Shown here one piece after another: positions 1 through 20,162 of a stretch of DNA of 28,902 nucleotides; the first letter of the stretch is position 1, and each line of letters begins with the position of its first letter. Position numbers and translations under genes: made by a program. The notes beneath the pieces are model-generated. The model did no database searches, was not told the DNA's origin, and saw only the letters and a list, made by a program, of their open reading frames with translations. The DNA comes from a virus, in the UHGV virus genome UHGV-1442816. The stretch is one strand, 5' to 3'.

Positions 1-602
1 TGTGTGCTTGTTTTAGCCAGAATATCCCGTCCAACATTAGTCAGTGTTGTCAGGCTGGCTGTATCATTCCCCGTAAAATACGGTAGTTTGTCTGCCGCAG
101 TGGCAAGGCCTGCCAGTGCTGTCAAAGTGGCATCCAGCGGCTGCTTAGCTGCCAGCGCTGTAGTTAAACCAAGGTATGTGAGAATGTCAGCAATAGTATT
201 TTTCCCAATAATGTCACGGCCAACAGAAGTTAAATCAGTCTGCGCTGCTGTATCATTTCCAGTGAAATATGGGAGTTTATTTGCACCTGTTGCGAGCCCA
301 GCTAATGCCGACAGCGTGGCATCAAGCGCCTGGAAATCTTTCCCGAAAGCGGTCCCCATTTTGGATATAAACCCGTTCAGGTCTCCATCATCAAGCACAT
401 CCAGCCCGCTTTTGTTGGCGGTGTACTGCGCCAACGCTGCCGCGATAAAGCTGGCTTGCCGAATAGCTTTGTTGACCTGTGCGCTGGATGCTTTACCTGC
501 CGTAAACCCTGAAAGCAGAGCCGGAAGTGCTTCCCAGTCAGCTTGTGAGGTGACGTTAGCGTTCGGATCAAGCGCGAAAGGTTTAAAGTTGTTTATTGCC
601 AT
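1..602 (-). CDS. Tail fibre protein, N-terminal 200 codons (5' partial; gene continues beyond window start)
   Basis: Not in ORF track because it has no stop in the window. Minus-strand ATG at 602..600 overlaps the TAA of the upstream gene (TAATG). Translation MAINNFKPFALDPNANVTSQADWEALPALL... contains two copies of a ~63-aa repeat (LDATLxALAGLATxAxKLPYFTGNDTA...VGRDI) typical of phage tail fibre repeats. Confidence 0.7.
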   Translation of the reverse strand, partial: MAINNFKPFALDPNANVTSQADWEALPALLSGFTAGKASSAQVNKAIRQASFIAAALAQYTANKSGLDVLDDGDLNGFISKMGTAFGKDFQALDATLSALAGLATGANKLPYFTGNDTAAQTDLTSVGRDIIGKNTIADILTYLGLTTALAAKQPLDATLTALAGLATAADKLPYFTGNDTASLTTLTNVGRDILAKTST

Positions 603-1282
603 TAGAGTATTGTCCCCCATGCTCCAACATCGAACCCGCCGATGTATTCGTTATCCATATCAAACCCAAAGAATTTAGAGCCTTCTGACGGTGTTTCTAC
701 CGAAGGCGTTTCAACATCACCGGCCCATACGCCAGCTGATTTAACGGTGAGATAGCCCTGTTTGATAGCGGCGATCAGTTCGAGAGACACATCAGAAATA
801 TCAGTTTCAGGGAAAACCCAGACCGAAATCGTCATGTCCTGGTTGTCGACGATCTGCATCCTCAGGCCTGAGCCTGCGGTAGCAGCGTCAAGGATGGGAG
901 GCAGAGAGTCGTTCCGACCGTCCCAGTTGTTGATAGCGATTTTCGCTTTCAGAATGATGCGGTACGTCTCATCGCTTAGCGTCGTATAGCCAGAATCAGG
1001 ATCATATGGCCCTTGCCAGATGCCCTGGTCATACCCAAGCCCGTCAGTGTCCCAGCTGAAATAAACTCCGCTAATTGGCTGGCTGACTATGCGACTGCGT
1101 CCGATCCACAGACCGAGGATGTCGAGCTGTACACCGACAGCAGTATCGATATCGAAGGCTGTTATAAGCCCTGACATAGTGCTGGACACATCAATCAGCG
1201 GGCGGGTGCTCAGATCTATATGGTCAAAAAAGAGTGGCTTGGTAGCGTGGTAGTTAGTGATCAGTTCGGTGTATTTGCTCAT
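602..1282 (-). CDS. Baseplate wedge/tail protein (Mu gp48 / P2 gpI-like, DUF2612-like)
   Basis: 226-aa ORF immediately downstream of the baseplate J-like gene and upstream of the tail fibre gene, the conserved position for this family in Mu-like tail modules. Confidence 0.55.
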   Translation of the reverse strand: MSKYTELITNYHATKPLFFDHIDLSTRPLIDVSSTMSGLITAFDIDTAVGVQLDILGLWIGRSRIVSQPISGVYFSWDTDGLGYDQGIWQGPYDPDSGYTTLSDETYRIILKAKIAINNWDGRNDSLPPILDAATAGSGLRMQIVDNQDMTISVWVFPETDISDVSLELIAAIKQGYLTVKSAGVWAGDVETPSVETPSEGSKFFGFDMDNEYIGGFDVGAWGTIL

Positions 1283-2478
1283 GAGGTCACCGTGATACTG
1301 ATATTCGCGGTGCTACAGGACGCTGAAGCATCATAGGCAATATCAATGTTTGATGCCGATACGCTGCCAGACGACTTACCGATCAGCAGGTCGGTAATAT
1401 CGTAATAGCGGGCATTCCCGCCGCTCACAACGCCGAGGTTTGCCGGGGAATAAATACGGCTCAGCAGAACGTCGTCGCCAATTGTTAGGCCATTTATATA
1501 ATCGGCAACAGCCTGTTTAATCTGCTCGCCGATTTGAGAGGTATAGCCGGTAAAAACTTTCAGGGTAATGGCTACGAAAATTGGCACATAGGTAGAGCGC
1601 GAAAAACTGATGACGTGAGGATTACCATAAGTATCCGGCACTGTGACAGAAGTTTTACCGTAAGTTGCGGTTCCCTGCCCTTTATTCCCCCTGATGGTCT
1701 GGGCTATCTCGGTAACATCCCCTCCATCGACGATGGCGGAAATAGAGTGTGGCGGCAGCCCGTTGCTGTCGGTTGCCCCAGTGTCGTTCTCATATAGTTT
1801 GTGACGTGTCACGCCAGCAACATTAGCGATAGCACCGTCGACACCTTCAAACGGTGTGATCGATGGTAGCGCGACGCTTTGCCCCTGCCGAATGCGCAGC
1901 TCTGCGTCGGTTTCGGCTGGTGAACCGACAGTAGCCGCAACTGGATTGGTTACCGACACCCAACCTCGGGTCGGGGTGTTGATAGTGGTAATAGTCCCGG
2001 CCAGCGCCGCAACCGAACCGCTATTCGCACATGTGGCCGTCACCAGCACAGTACCATCAACGCCGATCGCCACACTCGCTGGAAAATTCCAGATAATGCC
2101 GTTTTTATCCCGTGCGGAGCCATTCGTGATAGTCGTGCCTGCCGTACCGGTTAACAGAAGGTCAGCAGTAGAGTTTGTCGCTACTTTTCGCGTGATCCCG
2201 TTAATTTTCACATTGTTGCTAAGCGCTGCGGCCTGCGCTGTCGTCGGTGAAAAAGAGTTGTAGATCTCGATAGCGGTATTGTTAGCGTCATGCACCGCAA
2301 GAGCCACCAGCGCGACCATTTGCCCATCTTTGCTGTCTGGTTCGAGGTAGGCATCACTACCGTAAATCTGCCTGAAATAGCTGGTCAGTGTATCAAGGAT
2401 TGTCTGGTAATCAGGCGCACTAATCCCCTGGGCGGTTACCGTTGCCGATAGCCCCAGCGTGTCGAGGTTCAAAGCCAT
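1279..2478 (-). CDS. Baseplate J-like protein (Mu gp47 / P2 gpJ family)
   Basis: 399-aa ORF; size and position between the gp25/W-like and wedge genes; start overlaps preceding stop. Confidence 0.75.
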   Translation of the reverse strand: MALNLDTLGLSATVTAQGISAPDYQTILDTLTSYFRQIYGSDAYLEPDSKDGQMVALVALAVHDANNTAIEIYNSFSPTTAQAAALSNNVKINGITRKVATNSTADLLLTGTAGTTITNGSARDKNGIIWNFPASVAIGVDGTVLVTATCANSGSVAALAGTITTINTPTRGWVSVTNPVAATVGSPAETDAELRIRQGQSVALPSITPFEGVDGAIANVAGVTRHKLYENDTGATDSNGLPPHSISAIVDGGDVTEIAQTIRGNKGQGTATYGKTSVTVPDTYGNPHVISFSRSTYVPIFVAITLKVFTGYTSQIGEQIKQAVADYINGLTIGDDVLLSRIYSPANLGVVSGGNARYYDITDLLIGKSSGSVSASNIDIAYDASASCSTANISITVTS

Positions 2479-2832
2479 TTATGCCTCGCTTGTTACAGTC
2501 GTCTGGCCGTAGATTGTGTCAATGGAGGAAGTGAAGGTGACGCGACGGCTGGTGCCGTCATAATTGGTATCGAAGGAAAGAATCGACAGAACGCCCGGTG
2601 TATCCTGTATGCGTTCGCGTATAGCCAGGATGTAGACATCTGATCGCTGCTTCCCAAGCACTGACTGAACATACGGCGTGCCTTCCGTCAGATCGAGAAA
2701 CCACTGACCGCGCCACAGCTCGAAACGGGTTTTTACGGCCTGGGCGACACATTCCGGACTGTCGATAAGGAAAGTATCGTCACCCTGGCCGAAAGTGTAA
2801 TCGCCTTCAGTATCTTCGCGACGGTATCGCAT
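2479..2832 (-). CDS. Baseplate protein, gpW/gp25-like (Mu gp46-like)
   Basis: 117-aa ORF abutting the spike gene upstream and the J-like gene downstream; typical size and position. Confidence 0.55.
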   Translation of the reverse strand: MRYRREDTEGDYTFGQGDDTFLIDSPECVAQAVKTRFELWRGQWFLDLTEGTPYVQSVLGKQRSDVYILAIRERIQDTPGVLSILSFDTNYDGTSRRVTFTSSIDTIYGQTTVTSEA

Positions 2833-3572
2833 TATTGCGGCCCTCCGGTAGTTCCCCCGCCAGTCTGTACTCCGCCATGTTTATGCGTGGCGACACTGAT
2901 ACCAGAAGCTGTTACGTCATTCGTTACCGTCACCGGCCCAAGCATCGTCGCAGTACCGCCGCTTTCGCCCATTCCCTGAGACAAGTTGCCATTAATCGTT
3001 ACGTTGCCGTTCAGCGTGATAGTCGGGGATGTGATTGTCGTTCCACCTTCAGCCGTAGCCGTGAGCTGGCCCGGTGTTTGAACGGTGATGTTATGTCCTG
3101 CGGCAACCTCTACGAACGCCGCACCATCATCGGTTCGCAGCTGCGCGGCGCTGGTACTGATACCGCTGATTTTCTGTGCTTGCGACTGCGGGCCAACGAT
3201 GGCGAACGCATCAGATAAGTCATGCTGTCGCGGATCGACGGTCTCCTGAACGCCGCCGCTCTGCCACCAGAAATCGATGCAACGGTCGGCAAAGATAAGC
3301 AGGCATTCGTCGCCTTCTTTTACCGGAAAAGTCAGCGTACAACCGCCGCCACGCGGGAAGATAACCGGCACATCCACCAGCGGTTTTAATTCGGTGGAGC
3401 CATCGCCAACGATACCGCGAAGCGCTACCTCTACCGTGCAGGTAACAGTATCAGGATCGAACGACTGAATGATGCCGGGCATCGCTACGCGCATCTGGGT
3501 AGACACCGAATCGGCAATGGCCTGCGCGGTCTGCTGCTCACCGCCGATCTGTGATTGAGTTGGAATTGGCAT
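2832..3572 (-). CDS. Baseplate spike / assembly protein V (Mu gp45 / P2 gpV-like)
   Basis: 246-aa ORF with glycine-rich C-terminus (GGVQTGGGTTGGPQ) and position between hub and gp25-like genes. Confidence 0.65.
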   Translation of the reverse strand: MPIPTQSQIGGEQQTAQAIADSVSTQMRVAMPGIIQSFDPDTVTCTVEVALRGIVGDGSTELKPLVDVPVIFPRGGGCTLTFPVKEGDECLLIFADRCIDFWWQSGGVQETVDPRQHDLSDAFAIVGPQSQAQKISGISTSAAQLRTDDGAAFVEVAAGHNITVQTPGQLTATAEGGTTITSPTITLNGNVTINGNLSQGMGESGGTATMLGPVTVTNDVTASGISVATHKHGGVQTGGGTTGGPQ

Positions 3573-3580
3573 AAAAACCC

Positions 3581-3608
3581 CATAAAAAAACCCGCTCGGT
3601 GGCGGGTT
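3581..3608 (-). terminator. Intrinsic terminator downstream of the moron genes
   Basis: Minus strand reads AACCCGC-CACCGA-GCGGGTT followed by TTTTTTT: 7-bp GC-rich stem, 6-nt loop, U-tract. Lies between the stop of the 106-aa moron ORF (3630) and the start of gene V (3572). Confidence 0.65.
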
Positions 3609-3629
3609 AAATTCATACTTGAAATGAAA

Positions 3630-3950
3630 CTATAGGTTCTTACTAAGCACAAGCTTACAATCTTCAGCGCTTAGACCAGTCATTTGAGCTGATTCAGGAT
3701 AGCTACAATACATTTTCACTCGACGAAACCCGAGCACTGCGAATTGATCACCTTTACTACTCATCAACTCTTTTTCGCTGCCACCCTCTCTGCGTGCAAA
3801 TCCAGCAGCCTCCATGCCAGAAGCTTTAGAAATCGCGGTGTGTATAGCAAGGTTATTATCCAAATCTGGATGTTTTACAAAAAAATCACTTAACGTTCCA
3901 GCGCAAACGGAGGTGGATAGCAGAAAAAGAAGAGATACAAATCCTTTCAT
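3630..3950 (-). CDS. Small secreted protein (moron), unknown function
   Basis: 106-aa ORF with hydrophobic N-terminal signal peptide (MKGFVSLLFLLSTSVCAG), two later Cys, AT-rich relative to flanking tail genes, followed by its own terminator. Confidence 0.55.
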   Translation of the reverse strand: MKGFVSLLFLLSTSVCAGTLSDFFVKHPDLDNNLAIHTAISKASGMEAAGFARREGGSEKELMSSKGDQFAVLGFRRVKMYCSYPESAQMTGLSAEDCKLVLSKNL

Positions 3951-3955
3951 TAATT

Positions 3956-4294
3956 TTATCCTTTTATTTTTACACAGTCATAAGTTGCATACTGACGTGG
4001 TGCATCCATATTTGCTTGCAGCCACTGAGCATTCAGGATTGCTTTACCATTACGGCCAATAAACTCCATTCCTACCCATCGCCCTGGTTGATTGGTCGCT
4101 AAGCGCCATTCAATTTTGACGTTGTTATAATCACCGTCATTTTTAAGAAATGTCACTTTTTGCGATTCAGGTTTAGCTCCGTTTACGCGAGCGAAACCAT
4201 CATCAGCCCAATGGATGTTGAAATCACCACACTGAGAATCAGCAATAGCCTGGAAAGAAAATAATGCTGCAATGGTAAAAATTACGAGTTTCAC
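3956..4294 (-). CDS. Small secreted/periplasmic protein (moron), unknown function
   Basis: ORF track gives 3956..4336; I place the start at the in-frame GTG at 4294..4292, giving (M)KLVIFTIAALFSFQAIA/DSQ..., a canonical signal peptide, with a GAGG-containing stretch upstream and no overlap with the hub gene stop at 4305. AT-rich. Confidence 0.55.
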   Translation of the reverse strand: MKLVIFTIAALFSFQAIADSQCGDFNIHWADDGFARVNGAKPESQKVTFLKNDGDYNNVKIEWRLATNQPGRWVGMEFIGRNGKAILNAQWLQANMDAPRQYATYDCVKIKG

Positions 4295-4304
4295 GTCCCG
4301 TACC

Positions 4305-5369
4305 TCAGTAGTTTGTTTTTTGCATAGCACCAGCATTAACTAAATCACGACTGCCACGCGCAAAACACATCAAATCCATGTACCACGCTTGACCTCTGGT
4401 GTCGCCAGTATAGTCGATAGCTTTGACGATATAAACGCCATCTGTCGCAATGCTGGCAGCCTGTGACGTCGTGCCGGTCAGCACACGGTTGCCGTTCTCT
4501 TCTGTTTCGGTGATACGCCCGGGCGACTGTGCGATTTCGCTATTGCCGAGCGCGGCGCGGTACACCGAAGCCTGATCGAGCTGGATAAGACCATTAATGC
4601 GGATGTTGGGGTTTATCAGGCACCGCACGTTTACGCCGCCGCCCATAGTCTGTTGCGGCATACCGATCAGGCCAGTATCAGCATTCAACACAATGGCTTC
4701 GTGAATATATTTATCCTCCGGCACCATCTGGACCTGACCATCCACCAGTTGCCATGTCGCTTTGCACTGCGCAGCAATATTATCCATCACGTTGCGGCTG
4801 GATGAGTAAATCGCGCGGCCACGAGGAAACACGGTATCAGGAAAATCGCCGGTAATGCCCTGTGTCACGCCGAACGCGTTGAAATCCTGCATCGTCGCCC
4901 GGTGCAGATCCGCAACGGTATAGCCAGCGGCAAGCGTGGTGATGGTGGTCGCATAGAGGAACGCTTCGTGATCACCAATGGCCTGAATCAACACCCAGGA
5001 ATCCGTAATGTTGTCCTTCCCGGTGACGGTGAAGCGAATATCACCGTCAAAAATCAGGCCGTAGTTCTGACCGTTCACCTGCCCTATCTGGTCTGGTGAA
5101 ATCTCCCGGGACACACCAACCTGGCTCGCATCAACATCCGGCACTATACCGTCATACCCGGCAATGATGCGAATTTTGGCAAACTCCTGCCCAAGTATCT
5201 TGTTCGTGGTATCGGTCGAAAGGTTGTAAATTTTCACGTTCGCCACGCGTGGCCAGCGTGTGTCTGCCCACTCGATCTGGAACGTGACCTTAAAGTCAGA
5301 CAGGGAAACGCCCTGCCCGTTCTGGTCCAACAGTTGCAGCTCAAAATGGCGCATCCAGTTAAGAGACAT
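4305..5369 (-). CDS. Baseplate hub protein (Mu gp44 / P2 gpD-like)
   Basis: 354-aa ORF in the conserved position after the tape measure and two small tail genes, before the spike gene. Confidence 0.55.
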   Translation of the reverse strand: MSLNWMRHFELQLLDQNGQGVSLSDFKVTFQIEWADTRWPRVANVKIYNLSTDTTNKILGQEFAKIRIIAGYDGIVPDVDASQVGVSREISPDQIGQVNGQNYGLIFDGDIRFTVTGKDNITDSWVLIQAIGDHEAFLYATTITTLAAGYTVADLHRATMQDFNAFGVTQGITGDFPDTVFPRGRAIYSSSRNVMDNIAAQCKATWQLVDGQVQMVPEDKYIHEAIVLNADTGLIGMPQQTMGGGVNVRCLINPNIRINGLIQLDQASVYRAALGNSEIAQSPGRITETEENGNRVLTGTTSQAASIATDGVYIVKAIDYTGDTRGQAWYMDLMCFARGSRDLVNAGAMQKTNY

Positions 5370-5371
5370 TT

Positions 5372-5677
5372 CTACTCCTGTACGAAAATGAGGTGGCTGT
5401 ATGTGCCGAGGTTGGTTTTGGTGGGCTCGTCTGGTGCGCCCTTATCGGTCGCCACCACCAGCGCGCCATCAATGCCAAGCTGTGGATATTGTCGTAATAG
5501 GTTCACGCCGGTCAGGAGAGGTACGCCAGAAAGAAGCGCAGCACCGCCGCTATCCATCACGTCCATAATCCAGCCAGCCGCATCACGCCAGATGATCCTG
5601 AGTGTATACGTGGTATTGCCCAGCAAAACGCGGAACTGCTGATTGTCAGGAGAAAGCGGTATTTCGTTAAACTGCAT
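5372..5677 (-). CDS. Tail/baseplate assembly protein, unknown function
   Basis: 101-aa ORF tightly packed between the 200-aa tail protein and the hub gene. Confidence 0.45.
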   Translation of the reverse strand: MQFNEIPLSPDNQQFRVLLGNTTYTLRIIWRDAAGWIMDVMDSGGAALLSGVPLLTGVNLLRQYPQLGIDGALVVATDKGAPDEPTKTNLGTYSHLIFVQE

Positions 5678-5678
5678 A

Positions 5679-6281
5679 TCATCCCCCGAATGCTGATGTA
5701 ACGCTTCCGCCCAGCTGGCTCAGCAAAGATTCGTTTGGCGGTGTAGTGGATTTCGTCCCGGAATTTTGCACCGCCGATGTGCTGACGCCATCCTGCATAT
5801 CTGATTTATCAGCAACGCTAACGCTCTGCGTTTGCGACATGATCACTTCACGCAGGGTAAGCGTGCAGTTCAGCACGTTCTCGCTGGTTTTGTCCGTTGT
5901 CACCTCGATGGCTCTCACCAGCATATTGCTGTACACCCGCTTCCCGGTCACCACATCGAACGGCACCCGGGAGGACTGGAGATCCAGCAGTTGCTGATAG
6001 GTCTCTTTCGGGCTCAGTCCGGCGCTGAGGCCGATTGAAGATGTATCAATGAAGTCCAGCAACGAACCGCCCCCAGCGAAGCCGCATTCCATTGTGACTT
6101 CGCTGGGGCGCTTATACGCATGATCGGCGATGAAACCCGAGGCGCTATTCGTTGTTGGCTTCTCCACCGGGTGCTCAGTAATTTCGAGCGCATCAGAATG
6201 CTTTTCGGAAACGACCACGCTGGGGATCAGCAGGCCAATTCGCCGTGATTGCTGGCGAAAAATCGCTGATAAAATATCCAT
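5679..6281 (-). CDS. Tail protein following tape measure (possibly DNA-circularisation N-domain-like)
   Basis: 200-aa ORF whose start overlaps the tape measure stop; position equivalent to Mu gp43 / P2 gpU. Confidence 0.4.
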   Translation of the reverse strand: MDILSAIFRQQSRRIGLLIPSVVVSEKHSDALEITEHPVEKPTTNSASGFIADHAYKRPSEVTMECGFAGGGSLLDFIDTSSIGLSAGLSPKETYQQLLDLQSSRVPFDVVTGKRVYSNMLVRAIEVTTDKTSENVLNCTLTLREVIMSQTQSVSVADKSDMQDGVSTSAVQNSGTKSTTPPNESLLSQLGGSVTSAFGG

Positions 6282-8548
6282 TATCTCGGTCCTGCGGGGA
6301 GTTGCTGGGTTAACTGTGAATTCACACCCTTTTGACGGTCAACAGTCAAACGGGCAGCTTCGCGAGGATCGGAAACGCCGTGGATGTTAATGTTCGTTTC
6401 CTGCTGAATCACCGGGGCGCTGGTGGGCATATTGCTCATTACTTTCGGAATGTAATTGCGCGTTTCCTGCGGCATTAGCCCCATTCCATAACGTTGAACG
6501 TTCCCGATTCCCCAGTTATATGATGCAAGTGCTTTGCTAAGGTCTCCGCCGTTCTGCCGCAATAGCTGGCTAAGGTACTTAGCGGCTGCCTGAGCTGACT
6601 TTTCCGGGTCGAACACATCGTTACCACGCAGGCCCATGTCTCGCGCCGTGCCATCCATGAACTGGAACAGCCCCTTTGCACCCGCGCCGGACATGGCGAA
6701 CTGGTTACCACCTGACTCGGTTATCGCCACACTTTTCAATAGACCAGCTGGAAGTTGATAAAGCGACTCAAGTTTATTGAACATTGGCCCCATCCAGTCG
6801 AGCAATACTTTGCCCTGGGCTGTGGCCTGTGGACGTTTGACTGATTGCGCAAACTGGGAGGGGTCACCCGATATATTTGGAGAGATTTCAGCAGCTCCAG
6901 CCGGGGAGAAAAATAAATTACCGATTTTGGCAATCCCGTCTGAGATTTTTTCAAGATAACCATTAGCAGCCTGCTGACGGTTTTTTATTTCATCTCTTTC
7001 ATGCGGGGCAATTTCATTACTACGAACATGCTGTTCCGCCCCGGGAATGTCAGGCTGAACATTATCGCCATAAACGACGCCATTGCTTTGCGCCTGACGA
7101 ATAATCTTACCTGGGCCACCATGCAGCCAATCCATCCATGCGGGCCATTCTCTTACCTCGCTAACATCTTTTCGCCCAAGGTCGGTTTTGATGCCAACCG
7201 TAGCAAGAGCATCACCAATGTTCCTTTTGGTATAGTCCAAAGATGATTTAGCACTGGCTTTTATGTTTTCACGATCTGAAACCAGGTAACCAGCATACGC
7301 TCCCCATAATTTAAGCCATGGAGGTATCGGAAGACCGGATATTTTTGCGAATGCTCCCAATACTTTTGTTACCCATACCCCAGCGATGAAAGTAGCCAAA
7401 ATTTCCAGCGAGTTCTGCCATCCACCAACAGAATCTTTCAGCCCCAGAAGCTTATCGCGCAGCCAGAGAATTGCCTTTTTCGCCTTTTCTATTGCAGGCT
7501 CCCACTTGGACCAGTCAATCAGGCTTTTACCGCCTTCTTTCCACGTCTGATAATCGTCATAGAGTAATCCGATCGCCAGAATCAGCGTGGTGATAATTCC
7601 AATCGGGGATTTCAGGAACGCAGAATTAAGCAGACGCCATGCGACAAGTAGAGCACCGAATATTTTCAGCAGATTTTTACTGCCATCGTCAAGACGCTTC
7701 CACCAGTCAATGACAGAGCCAGCGCCCTGTATGAGCCGCCACGCCATTCGCGTGAAGGCGTTCGCAAGCCAGATCACGCCTTTAATAACTCTGGTCAGCG
7801 TCTCTTCAATCTTCGGGAAGTTGTCGAGGATGCGCCGCCGCAGGCTGTCCAGCGAACCAGCAAGACCACCAGCGAGGTTTGAGCCGATCTTGTCCCGCAT
7901 AATGCCGAACAGCGACGTAAGCCCGCGCATGGACGTCATGAATTTATTGGACTGCACAGCCGCCTTATCAGCGTTGAACCCAGTCTTTTGCAGCATAGAC
8001 TGGTAATCGGCGGTAAAGCCATTCATGCCGCGCCGCATCGCCATCAGCGTGTTTTCATCGATGCCAAGCATCTGCGCGTATTGCTTCGCGCGGTAATACG
8101 GCATGTTGTTGAGCTTTTGCCCAACGCCAGTAAAGATGGCCGCAGTATCACGCATCTTTCCGCTGGCATCGCGAGTCTGGACGCCCAGGCGGTTCAGGAA
8201 GCCTTCCGCGCCCGGATTGCTACGCATGAAACCGGCCAGCCCTTCGAGGGAGGACATAGCCGACTCGGCGCTGGCACCGGTTTGCGATGCGGCGTATCCC
8301 AGCGCTTTGATGCCCTGGACACTGGCCCCCGTCCGCTGGGATGCCCAGTAAATTTTATCCAGACCGTTCGCGATCTGAGTGGTAAATCCGACAATGCTCA
8401 GCGCTGCGCCTTCCACCACCGCGCCGACCTTCAGAACGTTAGCTGTAACGCCTTTCAGCACGGCTTCAAACTTATTAGCGCCAGCCTGATCGATATCGAA
8501 TCCCAGCGAAACAAGGAAATCTTTAATCGTATCTGCGTTACCGCTCAT
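6281..8548 (-). CDS. Tail tape measure protein with C-terminal lytic transglycosylase (SLT-like) domain
   Basis: 755-aa ORF, alpha-helical Ala/Gly/Leu-rich body with hydrophobic segments, directly after the chaperone frameshift region; C-terminal motif ESGGNQFAMSGAGAKGLFQF resembles the SLT catalytic region. Confidence 0.8.
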   Translation of the reverse strand: MSGNADTIKDFLVSLGFDIDQAGANKFEAVLKGVTANVLKVGAVVEGAALSIVGFTTQIANGLDKIYWASQRTGASVQGIKALGYAASQTGASAESAMSSLEGLAGFMRSNPGAEGFLNRLGVQTRDASGKMRDTAAIFTGVGQKLNNMPYYRAKQYAQMLGIDENTLMAMRRGMNGFTADYQSMLQKTGFNADKAAVQSNKFMTSMRGLTSLFGIMRDKIGSNLAGGLAGSLDSLRRRILDNFPKIEETLTRVIKGVIWLANAFTRMAWRLIQGAGSVIDWWKRLDDGSKNLLKIFGALLVAWRLLNSAFLKSPIGIITTLILAIGLLYDDYQTWKEGGKSLIDWSKWEPAIEKAKKAILWLRDKLLGLKDSVGGWQNSLEILATFIAGVWVTKVLGAFAKISGLPIPPWLKLWGAYAGYLVSDRENIKASAKSSLDYTKRNIGDALATVGIKTDLGRKDVSEVREWPAWMDWLHGGPGKIIRQAQSNGVVYGDNVQPDIPGAEQHVRSNEIAPHERDEIKNRQQAANGYLEKISDGIAKIGNLFFSPAGAAEISPNISGDPSQFAQSVKRPQATAQGKVLLDWMGPMFNKLESLYQLPAGLLKSVAITESGGNQFAMSGAGAKGLFQFMDGTARDMGLRGNDVFDPEKSAQAAAKYLSQLLRQNGGDLSKALASYNWGIGNVQRYGMGLMPQETRNYIPKVMSNMPTSAPVIQQETNINIHGVSDPREAARLTVDRQKGVNSQLTQQLPAGPR

Positions 8549-9151
8549 TGGCCGCTCTCCATTTATCTACCCGGGCGTCGTTATCCTCGCGCATGTCGAG
8601 GTAGTCATTGAGAAGCGCGATGCGGCAAAGGTCTACCGCACCGCTGTTAAGGTCTTTCTGGTCAATATGGAAGGCAAGCGCCGGGCGAAGAATAAAATCT
8701 TCACCGCCCGGCAGGCTGTTGAAGGTTATTCCGCTAGCGGGGTGGGCGTCTCGCTGGTAGGGAGTCCTTGCAAAAAATTTCCCAGCGAGTCGGCGACCAC
8801 CCGCGCCACCAGTTGCAGCATGGTAAGCAGGTCGATATCGTCAAACGCCATTTCGCCATGCTGGCAGACCGGCACCCAGCCTTTCATGTGCTCGCGTGAA
8901 ACAACGGAAAGACAGGGGAACAGGATAGCGTCCACGTCGCCATCACTCAGATCGGACACAGCATTGGCAATCTTTGGCAGGATGGTAGCCATCGCGCCTT
9001 CGGTGTCTTTGCTGCTGATCTTCTCCTGAACGCTCCGGAAGTCAGAAACCATCCCGGCCAGAACCGGCAACAGCTTGCGGGACACCTTCAGCTGTTCGAA
9101 AACGCTGAGCTTTGCGGTGCGATATTTCACGCCTTTAATTTCGAATTCCAT
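8538..9151 (-). CDS. Tail assembly chaperone, predicted -1 frameshift fusion product (G-T / E-E' type)
   Basis: The -1 frame is open from the slippery heptamer TTTTTTG (minus strand, 8777..8771) to a TAA at 8540..8538, adding about 77 residues that overlap the tape measure start. Confidence 0.5.
8726..9151 (-). CDS. Tail assembly chaperone (zero-frame product)
   Basis: 141-aa ORF between the tail tube gene and the tape measure gene, the conserved chaperone position. Confidence 0.6.
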   Translation of the reverse strand: MEFEIKGVKYRTAKLSVFEQLKVSRKLLPVLAGMVSDFRSVQEKISSKDTEGAMATILPKIANAVSDLSDGDVDAILFPCLSVVSREHMKGWVPVCQHGEMAFDDIDLLTMLQLVARVVADSLGNFLQGLPTSETPTPLAE

Positions 9152-9154
9152 GCG

Positions 9155-9595
9155 TTAAAACTCCCCGAGAAGCTGGTCAATCTTGCCGCAGTCGAATACC
9201 CAGGCGACGGTTCCGCCCTCTTTAGCGTTATTGAAATCAGGCTGTTTCTGGAATGCACACGAACGCGCAGTAGAAATATCACCCGATGCCGTGTTGCGAA
9301 TGACGATCACGTTATTGCCCCAGGTGGCAGAGGACTGGCTTTGCGCGTTATACGCCAGAGACAGCTTCTTGTTAACCGGGGAGGTTTTCAGCAGCGTCAC
9401 CGTAATGGTGCCTGACTTATCGGCGTGCAGGCTGTGCATCACTTCGCCATCGGCACCGATGGTCATGGTGTTTTTGTTGCCGCCCATGGTCTGGGTAATA
9501 CCTTCCTCAGAGTTGGCAGAACCCTGACCAAGATCGATAACGCCGGTCGGCCCGGTGAGCGACGCGGTTACATCGAGAAAAGAATAAGTTGCCAT
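9155..9595 (-). CDS. Tail tube protein (contractile tail)
   Basis: 146-aa ORF immediately downstream of the sheath gene. Confidence 0.7.
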   Translation of the reverse strand: MATYSFLDVTASLTGPTGVIDLGQGSANSEEGITQTMGGNKNTMTIGADGEVMHSLHADKSGTITVTLLKTSPVNKKLSLAYNAQSQSSATWGNNVIVIRNTASGDISTARSCAFQKQPDFNNAKEGGTVAWVFDCGKIDQLLGEF

Positions 9596-9605
9596 TTATC
9601 GCTCC

Positions 9606-10766
9606 TTAGCGAACCACGTTGATCTGCACATCGGCATAATGAACTGCGCCAGCCAGCTTACAAGCCACCTGGATTAACGGCGCTTTGCGTGCTTCTCGGT
9701 CAGCCTGTGCTTGCTCGGAAAGAGGTTGCGCATACACGTAATAACCTTTTGTCAGCGTATCGCCGGAATTCAGTTGCCCGATAGGGCCACCATTCCACAC
9801 GCCAGCCGCTACCAGACCGTTCGTGACGGACTGATCCATGGACTGTTCAACGTTGGAAAGCAGACGGGTCACACCGGCATCAGTCTGCGGAATTTTGGTG
9901 GTGCTGGTGTAAAGCAGGTTATAGAGGTTGGTCTGAACGTAGTTCTGCAACCAGTCGAGCCCGTGGCGCTCGTCGAAGAAGTCACCGTTCGCCATGACAC
10001 CCTGTTGCAGGATCGCCGTGTCGTTGGCGTAGTACACGAACACGTTCGCATTCTTCGCATCCACAGCCGCCGCCTGTCCTACCGTCAGCGTTTCGTAGGT
10101 TACGCTCGGTTCCTGTTTGAATTTCAGGGTAATGGTGGTATTGCTGCCGTTGAAATTGACAGTAAACGCGCGACCGAAAGCTGAAACCGCCGCATAAGGG
10201 CTGCTGGTGGAATATTGAATAAAGGTACGGGAATACTTACCGGCCTTTAATTTAGACGCAACATCGGTCGTCGAAGTCGTGCTGATGATCTCAGCGTCGG
10301 CTGACGTTACCCCGAAAATGCGGCTCAGGCTGGACGCTTCGATGAGTTTAGCAACCTCAATCACGTCGTCAGCATCAAGCACATCATCGCCATCAGCAAC
10401 ATCATCAGCGACAACCAGCCCATACCAGTTGGTATACTGCAGGCAGGCATTAACAGCTTGCACGATGGTTTCCACGCTTCCACCTTCGGAAGAGGTCAGC
10501 GTCTTCGCCCAGCGGCCAACATAAACCTGCGTCGGCTTCGGCGACTGGCTGAAGAAAACCTGCGCCGCTTCATATTCCGGGCTGTCGACTCCGAAGTCCT
10601 CGCCAATGTCCTCAACGGACGCATAAAGGCGAACGCGCTCCTGCACCGGAATGACAGTGGAAGAACCGAGGATCAGCAGTGCGCCGAAGTTACGACCAGT
10701 AGCCGCTTTCGGCGAGATGATCACATCAACGTTTACAACGTTGGATACAGGTAAGCCCTGCGTCAT
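9606..10766 (-). CDS. Tail sheath protein
   Basis: 386-aa ORF; size and position before the tube gene; sequence character resembles the myovirus sheath family. Confidence 0.8.
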
Positions 10767-10769
10767 AGT

Positions 10770-11375
10770 TTATTCTCCAAAAAAGGTGACTGGCGCTTCC
10801 ACCAGCGATTTAATGCCGTACTCGCGCACGACCTTCCGGCGCAGGCGCACCGTCATGTCGTAGCGGCGAACCCATTGCTGGTTGATAAGTTCGGGGAAAG
10901 GGGTCAGGCCGGTATAGTCTCCCAGGGACAAACCGAGCGCATTCAGCTCAGCATTGTTTTGCGGGACAGATATGCCATCACGAAAACGGGACGCATAAGA
11001 CATACCAGCCGGGCCATAGAACGACGCCATGCACTCGAACGTTTCATGCCGCCAGAGCTGTGCGCCCTCGTCGGTCTGATTGGTGAATGCAGGACTGTTA
11101 TCAATGGGCCACCCGGTAACGCCGAACGCACACCAGTTCGTTTCAACTGACGGTAGTGATGGCTGTTCTTTCTGCCAGCGCGGGCGAACCATCCCCGCAG
11201 GCAAGCCGGAAACATTGCGCATCCATCGGCTTAGCAGCCTGTCGAGCGCTTCGTCATAATCAGGATCGCCGCTGGTGGGTGTCAGCCAGCCGCGCTCTGT
11301 GCTGGTGTTATTGCTCAACGGGAGTTCCCCCATCAAACGGCAGTAATTCGCAATGTGCCTGGACAAAGCCAGCAC
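10770..11375 (-). CDS. Head-tail joining / tail completion protein, unknown function
   Basis: 201-aa ORF between head genes and sheath; true start may be an internal Met because the 5' end overlaps the preceding ORF. Confidence 0.4.
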   Translation of the reverse strand: MLALSRHIANYCRLMGELPLSNNTSTERGWLTPTSGDPDYDEALDRLLSRWMRNVSGLPAGMVRPRWQKEQPSLPSVETNWCAFGVTGWPIDNSPAFTNQTDEGAQLWRHETFECMASFYGPAGMSYASRFRDGISVPQNNAELNALGLSLGDYTGLTPFPELINQQWVRRYDMTVRLRRKVVREYGIKSLVEAPVTFFGE

Positions 11376-11697
11376 CGTAAGCCGTGTACGGGTCGACGAA
11401 TGTCACACGATAATCACGGTTCTGGTACGTCACGATATCGGCATCACGGCCAGTCTGCCCCTGCGTCAGCCGCTCAGTTGTCACGATGAGAATCGCGCCA
11501 CTGATAACCTGGCCGGACTGCATACGTCGGTTTTCCAGGGAGCGGTCAACAGTAACATCCCCGGCAAACTGCTTTTTAACTTCACTGTCGCTGCCGATCC
11601 CGTCCTCATCCACCGTTTGCACTCGGCGTGTTACCCACAGGTTGAAGTCGCAAAAATCGGGGTCAAAAAGTACGTCCGTCACATCAAGATTCGGCAT
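11308..11697 (-). CDS. Head-tail joining protein, unknown function
   Basis: 129-aa ORF in the structural operon. Confidence 0.4.
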   Translation of the reverse strand: MPNLDVTDVLFDPDFCDFNLWVTRRVQTVDEDGIGSDSEVKKQFAGDVTVDRSLENRRMQSGQVISGAILIVTTERLTQGQTGRDADIVTYQNRDYRVTFVDPYTAYGAGFVQAHCELLPFDGGTPVEQ

Positions 11698-12238
11698 CTT
11701 TATCCCTCACAACATGGGTAATGGCTCTGCGATATTGCCCGGTGTCAATTAGCGGTTTCACCAGGTCGGTTCCGGGAGACTCGCCAGCAGCGCGCCGCGC
11801 AAGTTCCGCTTTTGCCCCTTTGCGGCCACGGCGTGCACGGGCTTCAACGGTGCTATCAGCAAGCGGTGTAAAGCCGGTAATGGTCATGTAACGCCTGACG
11901 CCATTAGCGGCCAGCGTTCCGGCGCGGTTGAGCGCTCTTTCCGCACCCGCCGCATTACCATCAAGCGCAGCCTGCGCTGCTGCTTTTAGCTGCGGCACTG
12001 TCTGTTCTTCTACCGATTTAACACCGGGGATCAGGTGTGGTCGTGGGGGGATGTTTTGCGCCGGTGAGCCGTATTCATTGACGTAGCCGATCCCCGCATT
12101 ACCAAACGGAACATCTTCACGCTCGCTGTCTTCTTCCGGGATGCCCACCAGCACTTCTTTTTTACTGATGGATTTGAGCGCATCCAGGATGGCCTGAGCG
12201 TTATCCACCCTCGTTGTTACACCGCTTTTGAAACTCAT
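11684..12238 (-). CDS. Virion morphogenesis / neck protein, unknown function
   Basis: 184-aa ORF in the structural operon; start overlaps preceding stop. Confidence 0.4.
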
Positions 12239-12642
12239 AGCTGGCGACCGCCCGCACCGAACATCGTGATCAGCTGATAAAATTCAGCGCCATATCGGGT
12301 GTTATTCCAGAAGCCTGCGTCAGGGTTTAGCGTCGCGCTGGTGTCATAGCTGACGCTTACCTTGTCAACGGACTTGGAGGACTGAACACCATTGGTTGAG
12401 CCACCCGGGCCGCCGACGAGCATTGCCCGGCTATCTGCCGCCCAGAGCGTCATGTAGTGAGCCACGAACAACTCGACAAAGTACGGAAACAACTCTTTGC
12501 CGGTGACGTTTTCGCTCAGCAGCACATCAGCCAGATTCAGACGAAACTGGATTTGTGCTTCGGGATATTTGGCAGGGTCAGCAAACTGTGGAAAGTCGCG
12601 CCGAAAATCACTTACTGTTGGCAGGCTTTGATTCTTTGGCAT
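12235..12642 (-). CDS. Head completion / connector protein, unknown function
   Basis: ORF track gives 12235..12741; the first 30-odd codons overlap the upstream gene, so I favour the internal Met at about 12642. Confidence 0.4.
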
Positions 12643-12997
12643 CTTTCGCCCCATTACCGCCAGTCTGGGCGGCAGCAATCTGCGCTTGCAGGCTGTCGTT
12701 CTGCTCTTGCAGCTTGAGCAGCGCTTCTCGCAGATCGGCAATCAGCTGATCTTTATCGATAATCTGCTTATCTTTGTCGGCAATCTGAGCTTGCAGGCTG
12801 TCGATAATGGGTTGCAGATCATCGGTGTCGCTAATCACGCTTTCGGAAAGCTCGGAGTGCGCCTGGGTGAACCAGTGCGACGCGACCTCTTCCGGTACGT
12901 TATGCCGTCCCCGGCCAAACTCCCTTTTTGACTGATCGCCGAGCGTCAGCGTAAACGGGGTGTGAACATGGATGGTAACCAGCTTTTCTTTCGCCAT
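12608..12997 (-). CDS. Structural protein with C-terminal coiled-coil repeats, unknown function
   Basis: 129-aa ORF directly after the capsid gene and a stem-loop; C-terminus has heptad-like Q/D/K/L repeats mirrored by DNA repeats. Confidence 0.45.
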
Positions 12998-13038
12998 TTT
13001 CAGTTCCCTTCTGGCCCCTTTCGGGGCCGTTCTGGTTA

Positions 13039-13398
13039 TCAGATACCGTCCACGTAGGACAGGGTTTCTTTGTACACTGGCTCAACCGCACCGAGCTTGC
13101 CGTAGTAGGTCGCAATCTGATACAGACCGCGATACTGGACAGGAACGCTCTGCAACGGCACCAGCGGATAGCGCACGTATTTCTTGTCGTTGGTGTAGGC
13201 GATCATACGGTCTTTACCGCCAACCCCACGCCCTTTCAGCCATTTGACCGCTTTGATTTCAAGCGGAACGCCGTTCTGGTGGAAAGCGATAGTGTTCACA
13301 GCCAGATAGGTCAGCAGTGACTGGTTACCCGCTTCGGAAACCTTACGGCTCGCCAGCAGTGAATACTGCTCTGGCGGAATGCGCAGATCAGAAGGCAC
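13039..13398 (-). pseudogene. Major capsid protein, C-terminal part, downstream of an in-frame TAG
   Basis: Same frame as 13420..13980 and separated from it only by TAG at 13422..13420 plus seven sense codons. No Shine-Dalgarno sequence before the GTG at 13398. Confidence 0.55.
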
Positions 13399-13419
13399 GA
13401 TGGAATAACCGGATGCTGC

Positions 13420-13980
13420 CTAGGCATTAGACAGAATGCTGTTCACGCTATCGAGGATCTCGTCGTTGGTTGAGTTCGCCCAGGTCTTCGGCGCGTTGTT
13501 CAGCGTCACACCGACGAGGTTTGCCAGACCTTTCAGGCCGAGTGCGTCATCACCGATGTAAACCTGCTCGTCGTTGTCCATCTGCCATTTGAGCTGCATC
13601 CCGTCGTACTTCTGGGTATCAATCGGGCGGCCTACCTGCTGAGCAGCTGCCAGCTCTACAACGGTCCAGCCCAGTTCCATACCCCAGAGGTTCAGTGGAT
13701 TGCCGTCTTTGCTGATATCCACGTTCACGCCAGCAATAGCGGTGGAGTCTTTGCCTACCCAGTTTTTACCATTCGGATTTGCACCAGTACCCGCAGCGGC
13801 GAAGCTGGTATTCGTCCAGCTGGAAATGTCATCTGCGATAGACACGTCTTCACGCAGTTGAATATCTCGGGTCCAGGTGTACCCCACCAGAGGCAGGTTC
13901 AGCGTCTGGTCGAGTCGCTCCAGCTCCCCGATGAGAAAGGCACCAGAGCTATCAACGGTTGCCTGATCAAAAGTAATCAT
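13420..13980 (-). CDS. Major capsid protein, N-terminal part, ending at an in-frame amber codon
   Basis: 186-aa ORF in the position expected for the major capsid gene (after scaffold and a 167-aa head protein). The two parts together give about 313 aa, a typical capsid size. Confidence 0.55.
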   Translation of the reverse strand: MITFDQATVDSSGAFLIGELERLDQTLNLPLVGYTWTRDIQLREDVSIADDISSWTNTSFAAAGTGANPNGKNWVGKDSTAIAGVNVDISKDGNPLNLWGMELGWTVVELAAAQQVGRPIDTQKYDGMQLKWQMDNDEQVYIGDDALGLKGLANLVGVTLNNAPKTWANSTNDEILDSVNSILSNA

Positions 13981-13991
13981 TCGTCTGTTCC

Positions 13992-14495
13992 TTAAATCTT
14001 CCAGGAGATTTCTGCATTGCCGTTAGCGTCACCGGCCCCTGTGAATTCGGCGTTGGTCAGCGCCACGTTTTTGCCACTGACGGACGTGGACATGAAGCCG
14101 CCCAGCGGCACTTTGATGGATTCATCAGTGGAGACGACAACGTATACCGGGTCGCCTTTTTTGATGGTGCTGGCATCAAAATCAGAACCGAGATTAACGG
14201 TCATGTAGCCACGCTTCATGGCGTCACCCGGGAAGTTCTTATCCGTCCCCACCTGGCGAACCATGTCTGGCTGCGATGTGGTCGGATACGGACGAACGTA
14301 GATCCCCTTCACCTTGTCGGCGGTGTCACCGTCCGCCAGCGGCACGAAAAAGCCGTCAGCGTCATATTTGCCAGCCAGACCATAGGCAGCGAAGGCGTTA
14401 GCGGATTTAAGGATCACCGGCTCGACGGTTAAATCCTGCGGGCGAGAGATAGCCCCGGCAATGCCAACAGGCATCCGGTACAAATATGCAGTCAT
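13992..14495 (-). CDS. Head protein (possible decoration or accessory head protein)
   Basis: 167-aa ORF between scaffold/protease and major capsid genes. Confidence 0.45.
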   Translation of the reverse strand: MTAYLYRMPVGIAGAISRPQDLTVEPVILKSANAFAAYGLAGKYDADGFFVPLADGDTADKVKGIYVRPYPTTSQPDMVRQVGTDKNFPGDAMKRGYMTVNLGSDFDASTIKKGDPVYVVVSTDESIKVPLGGFMSTSVSGKNVALTNAEFTGAGDANGNAEISWKI

Positions 14496-14499
14496 TGGA

Positions 14500-15732
14500 T
14501 TATCCTTTGCGGTTAGACCAGAAGTCGGCGTTTTGTTTGTTCAGGGAAGCGATGCTGGTCATGCCCATATTTGGACGTTGTGCATCGCCCGTGGTGCTGC
14601 GGGTGTTTCGCCCTTTGGCAATCTCTGACACGGCGTTAAACGCCATATCTACCGATTGCTTGGGCAATTTGCGGATATCCGCATCACCGACAACCTGGCG
14701 AACCAGTGTTTTGTCAGCGGCAGCCAGCACATCACGTTTGAACGCGGTCGGTTTCACCTTACGGCTCAGATCGATACCCGGGACGATAACCTCGGCACGA
14801 TAGGCAGAGTCACCGGTAATCGTGGTTTCCTCTTCGTCGTCCTCGCCGTCGCCGGTCGGATCTTTTTTGTCTTTTTCGTCAGGCTTATTGTCGTTATCGC
14901 CCGTCGCAGTTCCTTCGAGCTTAGCCAGCAGGGCTTTGAGCAAGGTTTTGATATCGTCCTCGCCGTCGCCGGTTGGATCTCCGCCCATTTCCGGCTTTTT
15001 GTCCGGCAATGGTTGCTGCGGTGAAAGGTTAATGTTGAGGTTAACGCCGCTCGGCAGATCCCCTTCGTCACCCGTTACCGCCGCTGGCGCAGAGTCCAGC
15101 AGTTCGTTCATGGTGTCAGCGTCACCCGTTTTGATGGCCGTGCGCATGCGGGTCCACCAGCTTTTCTTTTGATTTGCCATTGTGTCTCTGTCTCCAATTG
15201 CACAACGATTTCCGGCTCTGCCTTTAGGGACAAGAGCCACATGGTTTCCGGTAATATCGACCTGCTCGGCTTTACCTGGCTCGGTCTGCTCGTACTCCGC
15301 GTCATAGCCGCACGACACTTCGCGCAGACCATCTTCGATAAGCTGAATGGCGCTTTCGTCTTTGACGATAAGGTCTGCCAGCATCAAATCAGACTGGTCA
15401 CCAGTCCCGCGCCGCACATTCTGAAGATGCCCGACAGCAAGCTCTTTCCAGTTCTCGGGATTTACCAGCCGCACATTCCCGTTTTCATCTTCAGGATGCA
15501 GGATCGTGATGCTCATCCCTTCGAATGAGGCGAGCGTGGCCGGATGGAATACCTGCTCAGGAGAACGCGTTACGACTATCTCACCGAGCTTGTCGGGTTT
15601 GAGGTTTGGCAGATCGGCAGCGCCGTAGAGCTGCTTACCCGTTCGACCTATCGGCACGTCTTTACACAACAGCGAGCCGTCAGCCAGCTGATAGCGGGTT
15701 TCCCCCAGCCGGGTATTGAAAAAATATTTCAT
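14500..15732 (-). CDS. Putative prohead protease / scaffold protein (Mu gpI-like)
   Basis: 410-aa ORF after the MuF-like gene; C-terminal half is highly acidic and low-complexity with repeated DPTGDGEDD motifs, typical of scaffolding domains. Confidence 0.5.
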   Translation of the reverse strand: MKYFFNTRLGETRYQLADGSLLCKDVPIGRTGKQLYGAADLPNLKPDKLGEIVVTRSPEQVFHPATLASFEGMSITILHPEDENGNVRLVNPENWKELAVGHLQNVRRGTGDQSDLMLADLIVKDESAIQLIEDGLREVSCGYDAEYEQTEPGKAEQVDITGNHVALVPKGRAGNRCAIGDRDTMANQKKSWWTRMRTAIKTGDADTMNELLDSAPAAVTGDEGDLPSGVNLNINLSPQQPLPDKKPEMGGDPTGDGEDDIKTLLKALLAKLEGTATGDNDNKPDEKDKKDPTGDGEDDEEETTITGDSAYRAEVIVPGIDLSRKVKPTAFKRDVLAAADKTLVRQVVGDADIRKLPKQSVDMAFNAVSEIAKGRNTRSTTGDAQRPNMGMTSIASLNKQNADFWSNRKG

Positions 15733-15746
15733 GGTTTACCTGCGAT

Positions 15747-19920: not shown

Positions 19921-19976
19921 GAATATTTCCTCTTAATGATATTATCGAAGCCCCTCAGTGAAGAGCTTCTGTAATG

Positions 19977-20162
19977 TCAGTCCCGGACGAACGTAACCTT
20001 TGTGGTTATCATTCGCCGTACAAGGCGCGTCGCTTCGCGTTGCATTTCATCAATTACTTTTGGCGTCAGCGGCTGACGCGCATATTTGCGCTCAATCTCT
20101 GCAAAAATCCCGTTCAGCACCTCGCTGTCTGGTGGGATAACTTCAACGTTTAATCGTGCCAT
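19977..20162 (-). CDS. Hypothetical protein
   Basis: 61-aa ORF between the spanin genes and the small terminase gene; no recognisable features. Confidence 0.3.
   Translation of the reverse strand: MARLNVEVIPPDSEVLNGIFAEIERKYARQPLTPKVIDEMQREATRLVRRMITTKVTFVRD

Follow-up and report, generated by a model that had tools for sequence, protein, structure and literature searches.

A conserved slot for accessory genes between the baseplate hub and spike genes of SEN34-like prophages, opened by a family-specific gene for a predicted exported protein

The virus genome UHGV-1442816, analysed over 28,902 nucleotides (nt; the whole stretch is called the window), carries a 732-base-pair (bp) segment at positions 3573–4304 between the baseplate hub gene and the baseplate spike gene of a temperate phage. 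The segment holds two small genes, termed A (3956–4294, 112 amino acids (aa)) and B (3630–3950, 106 aa), both predicted to encode exported proteins and both on the minus strand, like every gene in the region. It is proposed here that the segment occupies a hotspot for accessory genes, in which A is a family-specific “anchor” gene, B is one of many alternative cargos, and both products reside in the cell envelope; this reading as a whole is given a probability of roughly 0.45. The slot has a definite anatomy, namely the 3′ end of the hub gene (4305–5369), an exported first gene, variable cargo, a terminator (3582–3608) and the ribosome-binding site of the spike gene (2832–3572). Alleles of A and the cargo have very probably moved in and out of this frame independently of the tail genes, by recombination between its conserved borders.

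Slots were collected from GenBank phage records, complete Escherichia coli genomes, one genome per species of GTDB and IMG/VR viral contigs, together with contigs encoding homologues of B or distant homologues of A. The resulting census comprises 111 prophage and phage loci of Enterobacterales that have both borders (cited below by L numbers) and contains 97 distinct slot sequences. All 111 loci have the hub as one border of the slot, and its identity to the hub of the window ranges from about 50% to 100%. The hub is followed by a homologue of A (31–99% identity) in 105 loci, directly in 103 of them and as the C-terminal domain of a lipoprotein in two (L014, L020). The six loci without A begin with a lipoprotein (L009, L017, L051, L074, L093) or with another protein that has a signal peptide (L035, Hafnia phage yong1, a record deposited as a complete phage genome), and the lipoboxes in these alternative first-position proteins read LSGC, VTGC and LTSC. 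In every locus surveyed, the first gene of the slot encodes a predicted exported protein. In a few loci the annotated or called start of this gene is misplaced in the downstream direction, so that the signal peptide is lost (L002, SEN34_20; L035, yong1 gp67; L032, a 79-aa call); the full open reading frames (ORFs) encode typical signal peptides. In Escherichia phage vB_EcoM-606R2 (L003), the hub is annotated as two coding sequences of 140 and 213 aa (2956–4020), which points to a sequencing error or a frameshift.

Variation in the slot is limited to the position between A and the terminator. It ranges from empty to about 1.8 kilobases (kb) and may be occupied on either strand, giving slot lengths of 396–2467 bp and, across the distinct sequences, about 33 architectures and about 30 cargo families as counted in an approximate greedy ORF census. 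Unrelated genes occupy the position of B in prophages whose hub and spike are more than 95% identical. B itself is present in 12 of the 111 loci, where it is paired with three subtypes of A; A and B therefore assort independently. Furthermore, the exact combination of A and B is seldom seen: among 53 complete E. coli genomes with a match, one spans the full query. Divergence of A alleles is likewise set against near-identity of the surrounding genes, since hub, spike and the gene after the spike are 96–99% identical where A alleles differ (L008, L011). In L008, mature A is 65% identical to that of the window while the spike is 98% and the gene after it (2479–2832) 99% identical; in L011, mature A is 72% identical while the genes for the Dit-like protein and the plug are 99% identical. 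Co-evolution of A with the hub, the spike or neighbouring baseplate genes was rejected on account of these uncoupled identities.

The right border of the slot is a predicted intrinsic terminator, detected by a terminator scan and by conservation. Its hairpin (AACCCGC-CACCGA-GCGGGTT, followed by seven T residues) has a stem of 7 bp with five G–C pairs (3608–3602 with 3595–3589), a 6-nt loop (3601–3596) and a T-run at 3590–3584. It ends 2 nt before the Shine-Dalgarno sequence and 11 nt before the ATG (3572) of the spike gene, whose ribosome-binding site, as read from the sequence, spans 3570–3581 with GGGG at 3581–3578 and ATG at 3572–3570; relatives keep the order of T-run, GGRG or GGAG, and ATG. 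In a scan of window positions 1–20000, where the structural genes lie, it is the sole strong canonical terminator on the minus strand. Shuffled sequence yields terminator-like matches just as often overall, and the case for the terminator rests on its conservation rather than on the scan. All 111 loci have a GC-rich hairpin with a T-run ahead of the spike ribosome-binding site, whatever the cargo, and it is kept in slots that contain A only (L015, L028, L112, L114; 396–417 bp), in slots with antisense cargo and in slots without A. Stems that occur are ACCCGC/GCGGGT, AGCCGC/GCGGCT, ACCAGC/GCTGGT, CCCACC/GGTGGG and ACCCGTC/GACGGGT, and across 31 distinct terminator sequences three of the seven pairs show compensatory double changes, while the five core pairs are never broken. 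Positions 3582–3608 thus have the features that define a Rho-independent (intrinsic) terminator, as far as these can be judged from sequence.

These observations bear on a preliminary description of the segment, which had taken A and B for one acquired cassette, a moron that brings its own terminator. The hairpin terminator at the end of the segment was correctly recognized and is now seen to be conserved with covariation, but it belongs to the phage backbone, being present in all loci including those with A alone or without A. Similarly, the two genes do not travel as a unit, given that A is found in 105 loci and B in 12, with varied A subtypes. What stands of the moron reading is that B behaves as swappable cargo, present in some members of the family and absent from others as a moron would be; A and the terminator are fixed parts of the family. 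The same description had held that discovery of the cassette as a conserved baseplate component of related tail modules would speak against it. Related tail modules almost always contain A; its product, however, is predicted to be exported, and A is replaced in six loci.

Gene A starts with a GTG codon 11 nt past the hub stop codon, preceded by a TGAGGT Shine-Dalgarno sequence. The start overlaps the hub stop in some relatives, and RefSeq uses the same start in E. coli strain 81 (112-aa form). A longer form starting at an ATG at 4336 (126 aa) was rejected because it overlaps the hub out of frame, homologues begin near the GTG and RefSeq gives 112 aa. The N-terminus of the protein reads VKLVIFTIAALFSFQAIA, followed across the predicted cleavage site by DSQCG. 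The signal peptide comprises residues 1–18 and consists of MK, LVIFTIAALFSF and AIA, with cleavage before D. Signal peptides were judged heuristically, with a maximum Kyte-Doolittle value above 1.6 in a 10-residue window as the criterion for a hydrophobic core. By this measure, 56 of 58 members of the A family have a positive N-terminus and a hydrophobic core upstream of an invariant Cys-Gly, and most show by eye a small-x-small motif before it (e.g., AxA-D-S/T-Q); otherwise, the N-terminal region is not conserved in sequence. Many residues of the family are invariant, among them C22 and C107 near either end of the mature part of about 94 aa. The earlier statement that both ORFs encode a signal peptide and two Cys in the mature part is thus upheld by the heuristic check and by the invariance of the Cys in each family. 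A has no lipobox, its first mature Cys being preceded by D-S-Q (AIA, cleavage site, DSQC).

An AlphaFold2 model of A built with 58 homologues (predicted local distance difference test, 84.7) shows an eight-stranded up-and-down β-barrel. When the model was compared with known structures, an immunity protein of a type VI secretion system scored 6.0 and PliC 4.9–5.2, the latter below generic barrels. A Foldseek search of BFVD returned nothing at E up to 0.001, and a sequence-profile search of the PDB returned nothing significant apart from a marginal avidin segment. When a profile of A was run against the full set of 1.8 billion representative proteins, 68 proteins, mostly small ones, were hit at E up to 0.001. 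Long proteins hit in multiple stretches were considered as remote homologues and rejected as spurious, being Gram-positive repeat surface proteins (Flg_new, MucBP). The farthest homologues found (41–47% identity) occupy the same slot position, and the A family appears to be confined to the hub-to-spike slot of one phage lineage. Members examined are named “hypothetical,” “uncharacterized,” “secreted protein” or “putative exported protein” in public sources.

In Enterobacter bugandensis (L014) and Phytobacter ursingii (L020), the A domain makes up the C-terminal part of a lipoprotein about 290 aa long. The N-terminal domain of these fusions is homologous to that of the lipoproteins of 371–379 aa which stand in place of A in L009 and L017 (blastp E = 1e-8 to 1e-14). 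The fusions are best read, from the alignments, as domain shuffling among exported proteins of the first position. Together with the substitutions of A by other exported proteins, they place the function of A in the envelope and indicate that A is not needed as a part of the virion.

Gene B begins 5 nt past the stop codon of A. Its product starts with MKGFVSLLFLLSTSVCA, followed by GTLSD, and by the same heuristic check has a signal peptide of residues 1–17 composed of MK, GFVSLLFLL and VCA before G (ASA before G in homologues). The mature part is predicted to form a helical bundle and contains the family-invariant residues C82 and C98. B has no lipobox either, Cys16 being preceded by S-V, and this Cys is missing from all homologues but the closest (P0113, 99% identical). 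A or B as a lipoprotein of the Cor or Llp type was accordingly discarded, neither having a lipobox; one UniRef entry carries the automatic label “Lipoprotein” on a member of the B family. A profile search of the PDB with B gave nothing significant. Neither A nor B has a match in Pfam (E up to 0.1), NCBIfam or PADLOC, and in PHROGs they fall in two families without assigned function. The cluster of B at 90% identity is found on more than 500 contigs, and homologues of B down to 55% identity all lie at the same slot position.

As stated in the preliminary description, the segment is AT-rich compared with the tail genes. Its G+C content (GC) is 0.415 against about 0.55, which places it among the lowest 2.3% of 732-bp windows in sliding measurements along the 28.9 kb, and GC at third codon positions (GC3) is 0.32 in A and 0.33 in B as opposed to 0.55–0.64 in seven neighboring tail genes. 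In relatives, GC of the slot is 0.37–0.47 in a first set of 30 loci and 0.35–0.47 in IMG/VR slots. Gene A is AT-rich in all 23 loci whose A composition was examined, with GC of 0.41–0.49 in six E. coli relatives, and slots with A alone have 0.42–0.47 against 0.52–0.54 for the adjoining hub where this was measured. The A family is AT-rich despite its age in the lineage, as seen in divergence down to 31% identity. This composition is either selected (e.g., for silencing or regulation) or a consequence of alleles being repeatedly re-imported.

The cargo at the variable position includes conflict genes. In a prophage of Pantoea dispersa (L022), a gene located +458 to +1687 past the hub stop encodes a 409-aa protein with a transmembrane part, a DUF4041-like part and a T5orf172/GIY-YIG domain, which matches PD-lambda-1 (SNIPE) with E = 2.8e-82; the cargo of L021 matches PDC-S42 (E = 1.7e-36). 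Phd/Doc genes are found in L008 and L016, and further cargo comprises two-gene sets of HEPN type, T5orf172 genes, and EACC1-like and DUF4236 genes in antisense orientation. Antisense cargo is present in L006, L007, L010, L012, L029 and L035 as well as in many IMG/VR loci. Other slots hold a gene for a 128-aa secreted protein (Citrobacter phage Omnitron, L014) or for a transmembrane protein with a Mu-F-like Cys-rich domain. The most frequent cargo families without an assigned function are the 128-aa secreted protein, a 149-aa protein paired with a coiled-coil/TM protein, a 260-aa protein paired with a HEPN-like one, and the antisense EACC1 and DUF4236 genes. The cargo of L036, L054 and L062 consists of small Arc/HicB-like repressors with KilA-N/ANT or BRO-type antirepressor genes and resembles a P22 immI-type module inside a baseplate operon. 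The nuclease SNIPE has been shown experimentally to block injection of phage genomes and spares myoviruses (PMC13190303), which would fit its carriage by a prophage with a contractile tail without self-harm. The slot hence displays the two marks of a hotspot, conserved flanks around variable content and known anti-phage systems among the cargo.

Expression of A and B can be considered from the layout of the operon. The preliminary description had assumed autonomous expression, and here the analysis departs from it: no convincing promoter was found for A or B, and the close junction of hub and A has the look of co-translation with the late operon. A candidate σ70 promoter (TTTATA-17-TATACT) lies on the minus strand at 4435–4407, some 110 nt ahead of A and still within the 3′ end of the hub gene. 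It agrees with the consensus in 9 of 12 positions and is found, identically placed, in 19 of 30 loci. In 20 loci with a hub identity below 90%, the codons of the −10 element are kept (TAT in 18, ACT in 19) whereas fourfold-degenerate codons close by vary. Conservation also extends to the peptide encoded there, DGVYIV..YTGDTRG; this confounds the synonymous-site signal, and the candidate is at best a weak one. A promoter of B at 3981–3953 was rejected, as its −10 element (TAAAAT, 3958–3953) would start transcription at or after the ATG of B (3950). The other part of the earlier proposal, late read-through under Q, is plausible, with a gene for a Q antiterminator (22134–22757, PF03589) located upstream. 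About 45 nt downstream of it, a promoter-like sequence (TTGACT-17-TAAATT, 22063–22091, minus strand) is a candidate late promoter analogous to pR′, which might feed Q-modified transcription to the slot.

Q-modified RNA polymerase of lambdoid phages ignores intrinsic terminators. A terminator ignored by late transcription is useful only against other transcription, and antisense cargo needs promoters of its own, so that the slot houses genes transcribed independently of the late operon. Taken together, the universal terminator and the antisense cargo suggest that the slot may also be transcribed in the lysogen. During lytic growth, Q-modified polymerase from the late promoter would cross the terminator, and A and B would be made along with the tail genes. 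In the lysogen, transcription begun in or just upstream of the slot would be halted before the spike and the downstream baseplate genes. A and B would then be exported by Sec and their signal peptides cleaved, and the Cys pair of each presumably forms a disulfide in the periplasm.

Phage proteins that are exported and encoded among tail genes typically block entry or mask receptors (HK97 gp15, Cor, Llp, T4 Sp/Imm). Because of this pattern, and because the slot carries conflict genes, exclusion at the level of the envelope is favored as the role of A and B. By this analogy the two proteins may act in the periplasm, most plausibly by blocking entry of superinfecting phages, although the assignment is a tentative one to which we give clearly less than even odds. 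Several observations weigh against the proposal of an accessory-gene hotspot with envelope-acting products. The sole promoter candidate for A and B sits in coding sequence with a conserved protein motif, and A lies 11 nt past the hub stop or overlaps it, possibly as a purely late gene. A and B have no match in PADLOC, Pfam, NCBIfam, PDB or BFVD, and their function is assigned by position and analogy. Furthermore, alleles of A do not co-vary with their own hub, spike or tape-measure C-terminus and share many invariant residues; this lack of co-variation is unlike what a self-matched exclusion protein would show. Finally, a terminator in an operon read by Q could serve to stabilize the 3′ end of the mRNA or cause partial attenuation.

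The first alternative is that A is a late lytic helper, expressed only with the tail genes and acting in the periplasm of the dying cell, for example by masking receptors or by modulating the breakdown of the cell wall. The close packing of A on the hub and its place inside a Q-dependent late operon agree with this idea, as does the lack of a proven lysogenic promoter. However, the universal terminator would have no obvious use if only antiterminated transcription crossed it, and the slot holds cargo of a kind typically expressed in lysogens, including antisense genes. A link to the lytic transglycosylase of the tape measure is not supported either, as A is present in L034 and L036, which lack the SLT domain, and absent from yong1, which has it. 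For the same reason, A was rejected as a Spackle-like inhibitor of the phage’s own tape-measure transglycosylase. Overall, a late helper is unlikely. The tape measures of L034 and L036 have C-terminal regions of 500–560 residues without SLT, unlike the tape measure of the window (6281–8548) and those of most relatives, and the tape-measure C-terminus appears to be modular in this phage family.

Alternatively, A and perhaps B could be directed at the host as fitness or virulence factors, for instance as a lysozyme inhibitor similar to PliC or MliC or as a ligand-binding barrel of the calycin type. Sequence searches of Pfam, NCBIfam and the PDB matched neither protein to the MliC/PliC families, and PliC scored under generic barrels. 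The A family is restricted to one lineage and one slot, and its carriers include prophages of plant- and insect-associated Pantoea, Erwinia, Rahnella and Serratia, which argues against a target in an animal host. A host-directed role is quite improbable.

The unitary moron of the preliminary description, in which A and B form one foreign cassette with its own promoter and terminator for lysogenic conversion, could account for the AT-richness (GC3 0.32–0.33), the terminator at the 3′ end, the signal peptides of both products and the rarity of the exact pairing (1 of 53 matching complete E. coli genomes). It does not account for A in 105 of 111 loci down to 31% identity against B in 12 with different A subtypes, nor for a terminator that also accompanies A alone or other cargo; with no promoter found, and the site at 3981–3953 having a −10 element that overlaps the start codon of B, it is very unlikely. 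Still less probable, to the point of being nearly discounted, is that A serves in the structure or assembly of the baseplate and that its N-terminal hydrophobic segment is not a cleaved signal peptide: strict synteny (105 of 111), tight packing on the hub, a family found nowhere else and many invariant residues would suit such a role, but in 56 of 58 members the N-terminus keeps its charge and hydrophobic core although its sequence is free, A is found joined to the N-terminal domains of lipoproteins (L014, L020) or is replaced by unrelated exported proteins in six loci including yong1, the invariant C22 and C107 would fit a periplasmic disulfide, its alleles are uncoupled from those of hub and spike, and its GC3 of 0.32 is unlike that of all structural genes nearby.

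A and the lipoproteins that alternate with it might represent a new periplasmic class of proteins for phage exclusion or envelope remodeling, which a single phage lineage (SEN34-like, “temperate 26”) carries as an almost obligatory accessory. The slot would in that case be an unmined defense hotspot whose roughly 30 cargo families, including B, are largely new anti-phage or conflict genes; this extension is speculative and rather doubtful. No description of the slot, of A or of B was found in the literature searched, and two elements in particular were not met there: an exported “anchor” gene that is specific to the lineage and nearly obligatory, and a right border formed by an invariant terminator. 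Morons and prophage hotspots as such are already well known, so that the slot adds a case rather than a new principle. Nevertheless, accessory hotspots of prophages, those of P2/P4 among them, have proved fruitful for finding new anti-phage systems, and the sharp borders of the slot make its cargo easy to harvest computationally. The lineage extends over Escherichia, Citrobacter, Enterobacter, Klebsiella, Salmonella, Serratia, Pantoea, Yersinia and other Enterobacterales. Gene A raises the question why an AT-rich gene for a small periplasmic barrel lies between baseplate genes in almost the whole phage family.

The surrounding genes identify the element as a lambdoid-regulated temperate phage with a contractile tail and an E217/Pam3-type baseplate, of the “SEN34-like” type; SEN34 itself combines λ-like genetics with myovirus morphology (PMC5261728). 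Its nearest known relatives are Citrobacter phage Omnitron and a prophage in E. coli strain 81 (NZ_CP088131), which is 97.5% identical over 2.6 kb and has the same slot with A and B. On the left (5′) side of the slot, the hub matches PF22759 (E217_GP41) and phrog_196 “baseplate hub” (E = 2.2e-82) and is preceded on the minus strand by genes for the tape measure with a C-terminal SLT domain (6281–8548), the Dit-like protein (5679–6281) and a Pam3-gp18-type plug (5372–5677). The first gene past the slot encodes a baseplate spike of the gpV type with an apex motif, matching PF18352 in its N-terminal domain (E = 8.2e-42), PF18946 Apex (E = 3.5e-8) and TIGR01644 phage_P2_V. It is followed on the same strand by a 117-aa ORF (2479–2832), which has no family match in the window and carries PF10934 Sheath_initiator in relatives, and by a baseplate-J gene (1279–2478). 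A λ-S-type holin gene (21142–21465) lies upstream of the slot. The window has a second AT-rich patch at 23100–24200 (GC 0.39–0.43). It contains a gene for a NUMOD4 + HNH_3 endonuclease (23566–24075, minus strand), situated in a nin-like region between a NinX-like gene and RusA, and looks like an insert of the homing-endonuclease type. In the early or replication region, a strong terminator-like hairpin with an 8-bp stem, six G–C pairs and a T-run (26211–26234, minus strand) sits downstream of an ORF at 26263–27714.

Among known systems, PliC/MliC and other eight-stranded barrels of the calycin type (avidins, the Cap15 barrel) share with A the predicted fold class, the size and the periplasmic location; A differs from MliC/PliC in having no sequence match to the family and a fold match below generic barrels. 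The Spackle protein (Sp) of T4 is periplasmic and blocks the tail-tip lysozyme (gp5) of a superinfecting phage. It is, like A and B, a small Sec-exported phage protein of the periplasm, whereas action on an incoming phage is only proposed for A and B and the fold of A is not similar. Cor (phi80/N15/T1) and Llp (T5) are receptor-blocking outer-membrane lipoproteins encoded next to tail genes, and T5 Llp masks receptors so that progeny are not lost on debris. A and B of the window differ from them in having neither a lipobox nor a Pfam match (E up to 0.1), but they too are small exported proteins encoded in or beside tail genes, and the A-less loci and A fusions of the slot do encode lipoproteins.

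Morons are known from lambdoid phages (Juhala et al., 2000). As in these phages, extra genes for envelope proteins have been added among the conserved tail genes under Q control; they differ in composition and have an intrinsic terminator behind them, and B is present or absent among otherwise near-identical phages. Unlike in lambdoid morons, the terminator and A are part of the backbone of the phage family, and no moron promoter was identified. One example is the HK97 gp15 moron in the tail gene cluster, whose product acts in superinfection exclusion (Cumby et al., 2012, cited in PMC13190303). This product resides in the inner membrane; A and B, by contrast, are predicted to be soluble periplasmic proteins and have no sequence or fold similarity to it. 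The hotspots Z/fun and old/tin of P2-like phages hold anti-phage systems (Rousset et al., 2022, PMC9122126; bioRxiv 10.1101/2024.10.15.618418). They resemble the present slot in their fixed position between morphogenesis genes and in their many alternative cargos, including validated defense genes and toxin-antitoxin pairs. In contrast, the slot described here lies between the hub and spike genes of SEN34-like phages and is bordered by a near-invariant exported first gene and an invariant terminator.

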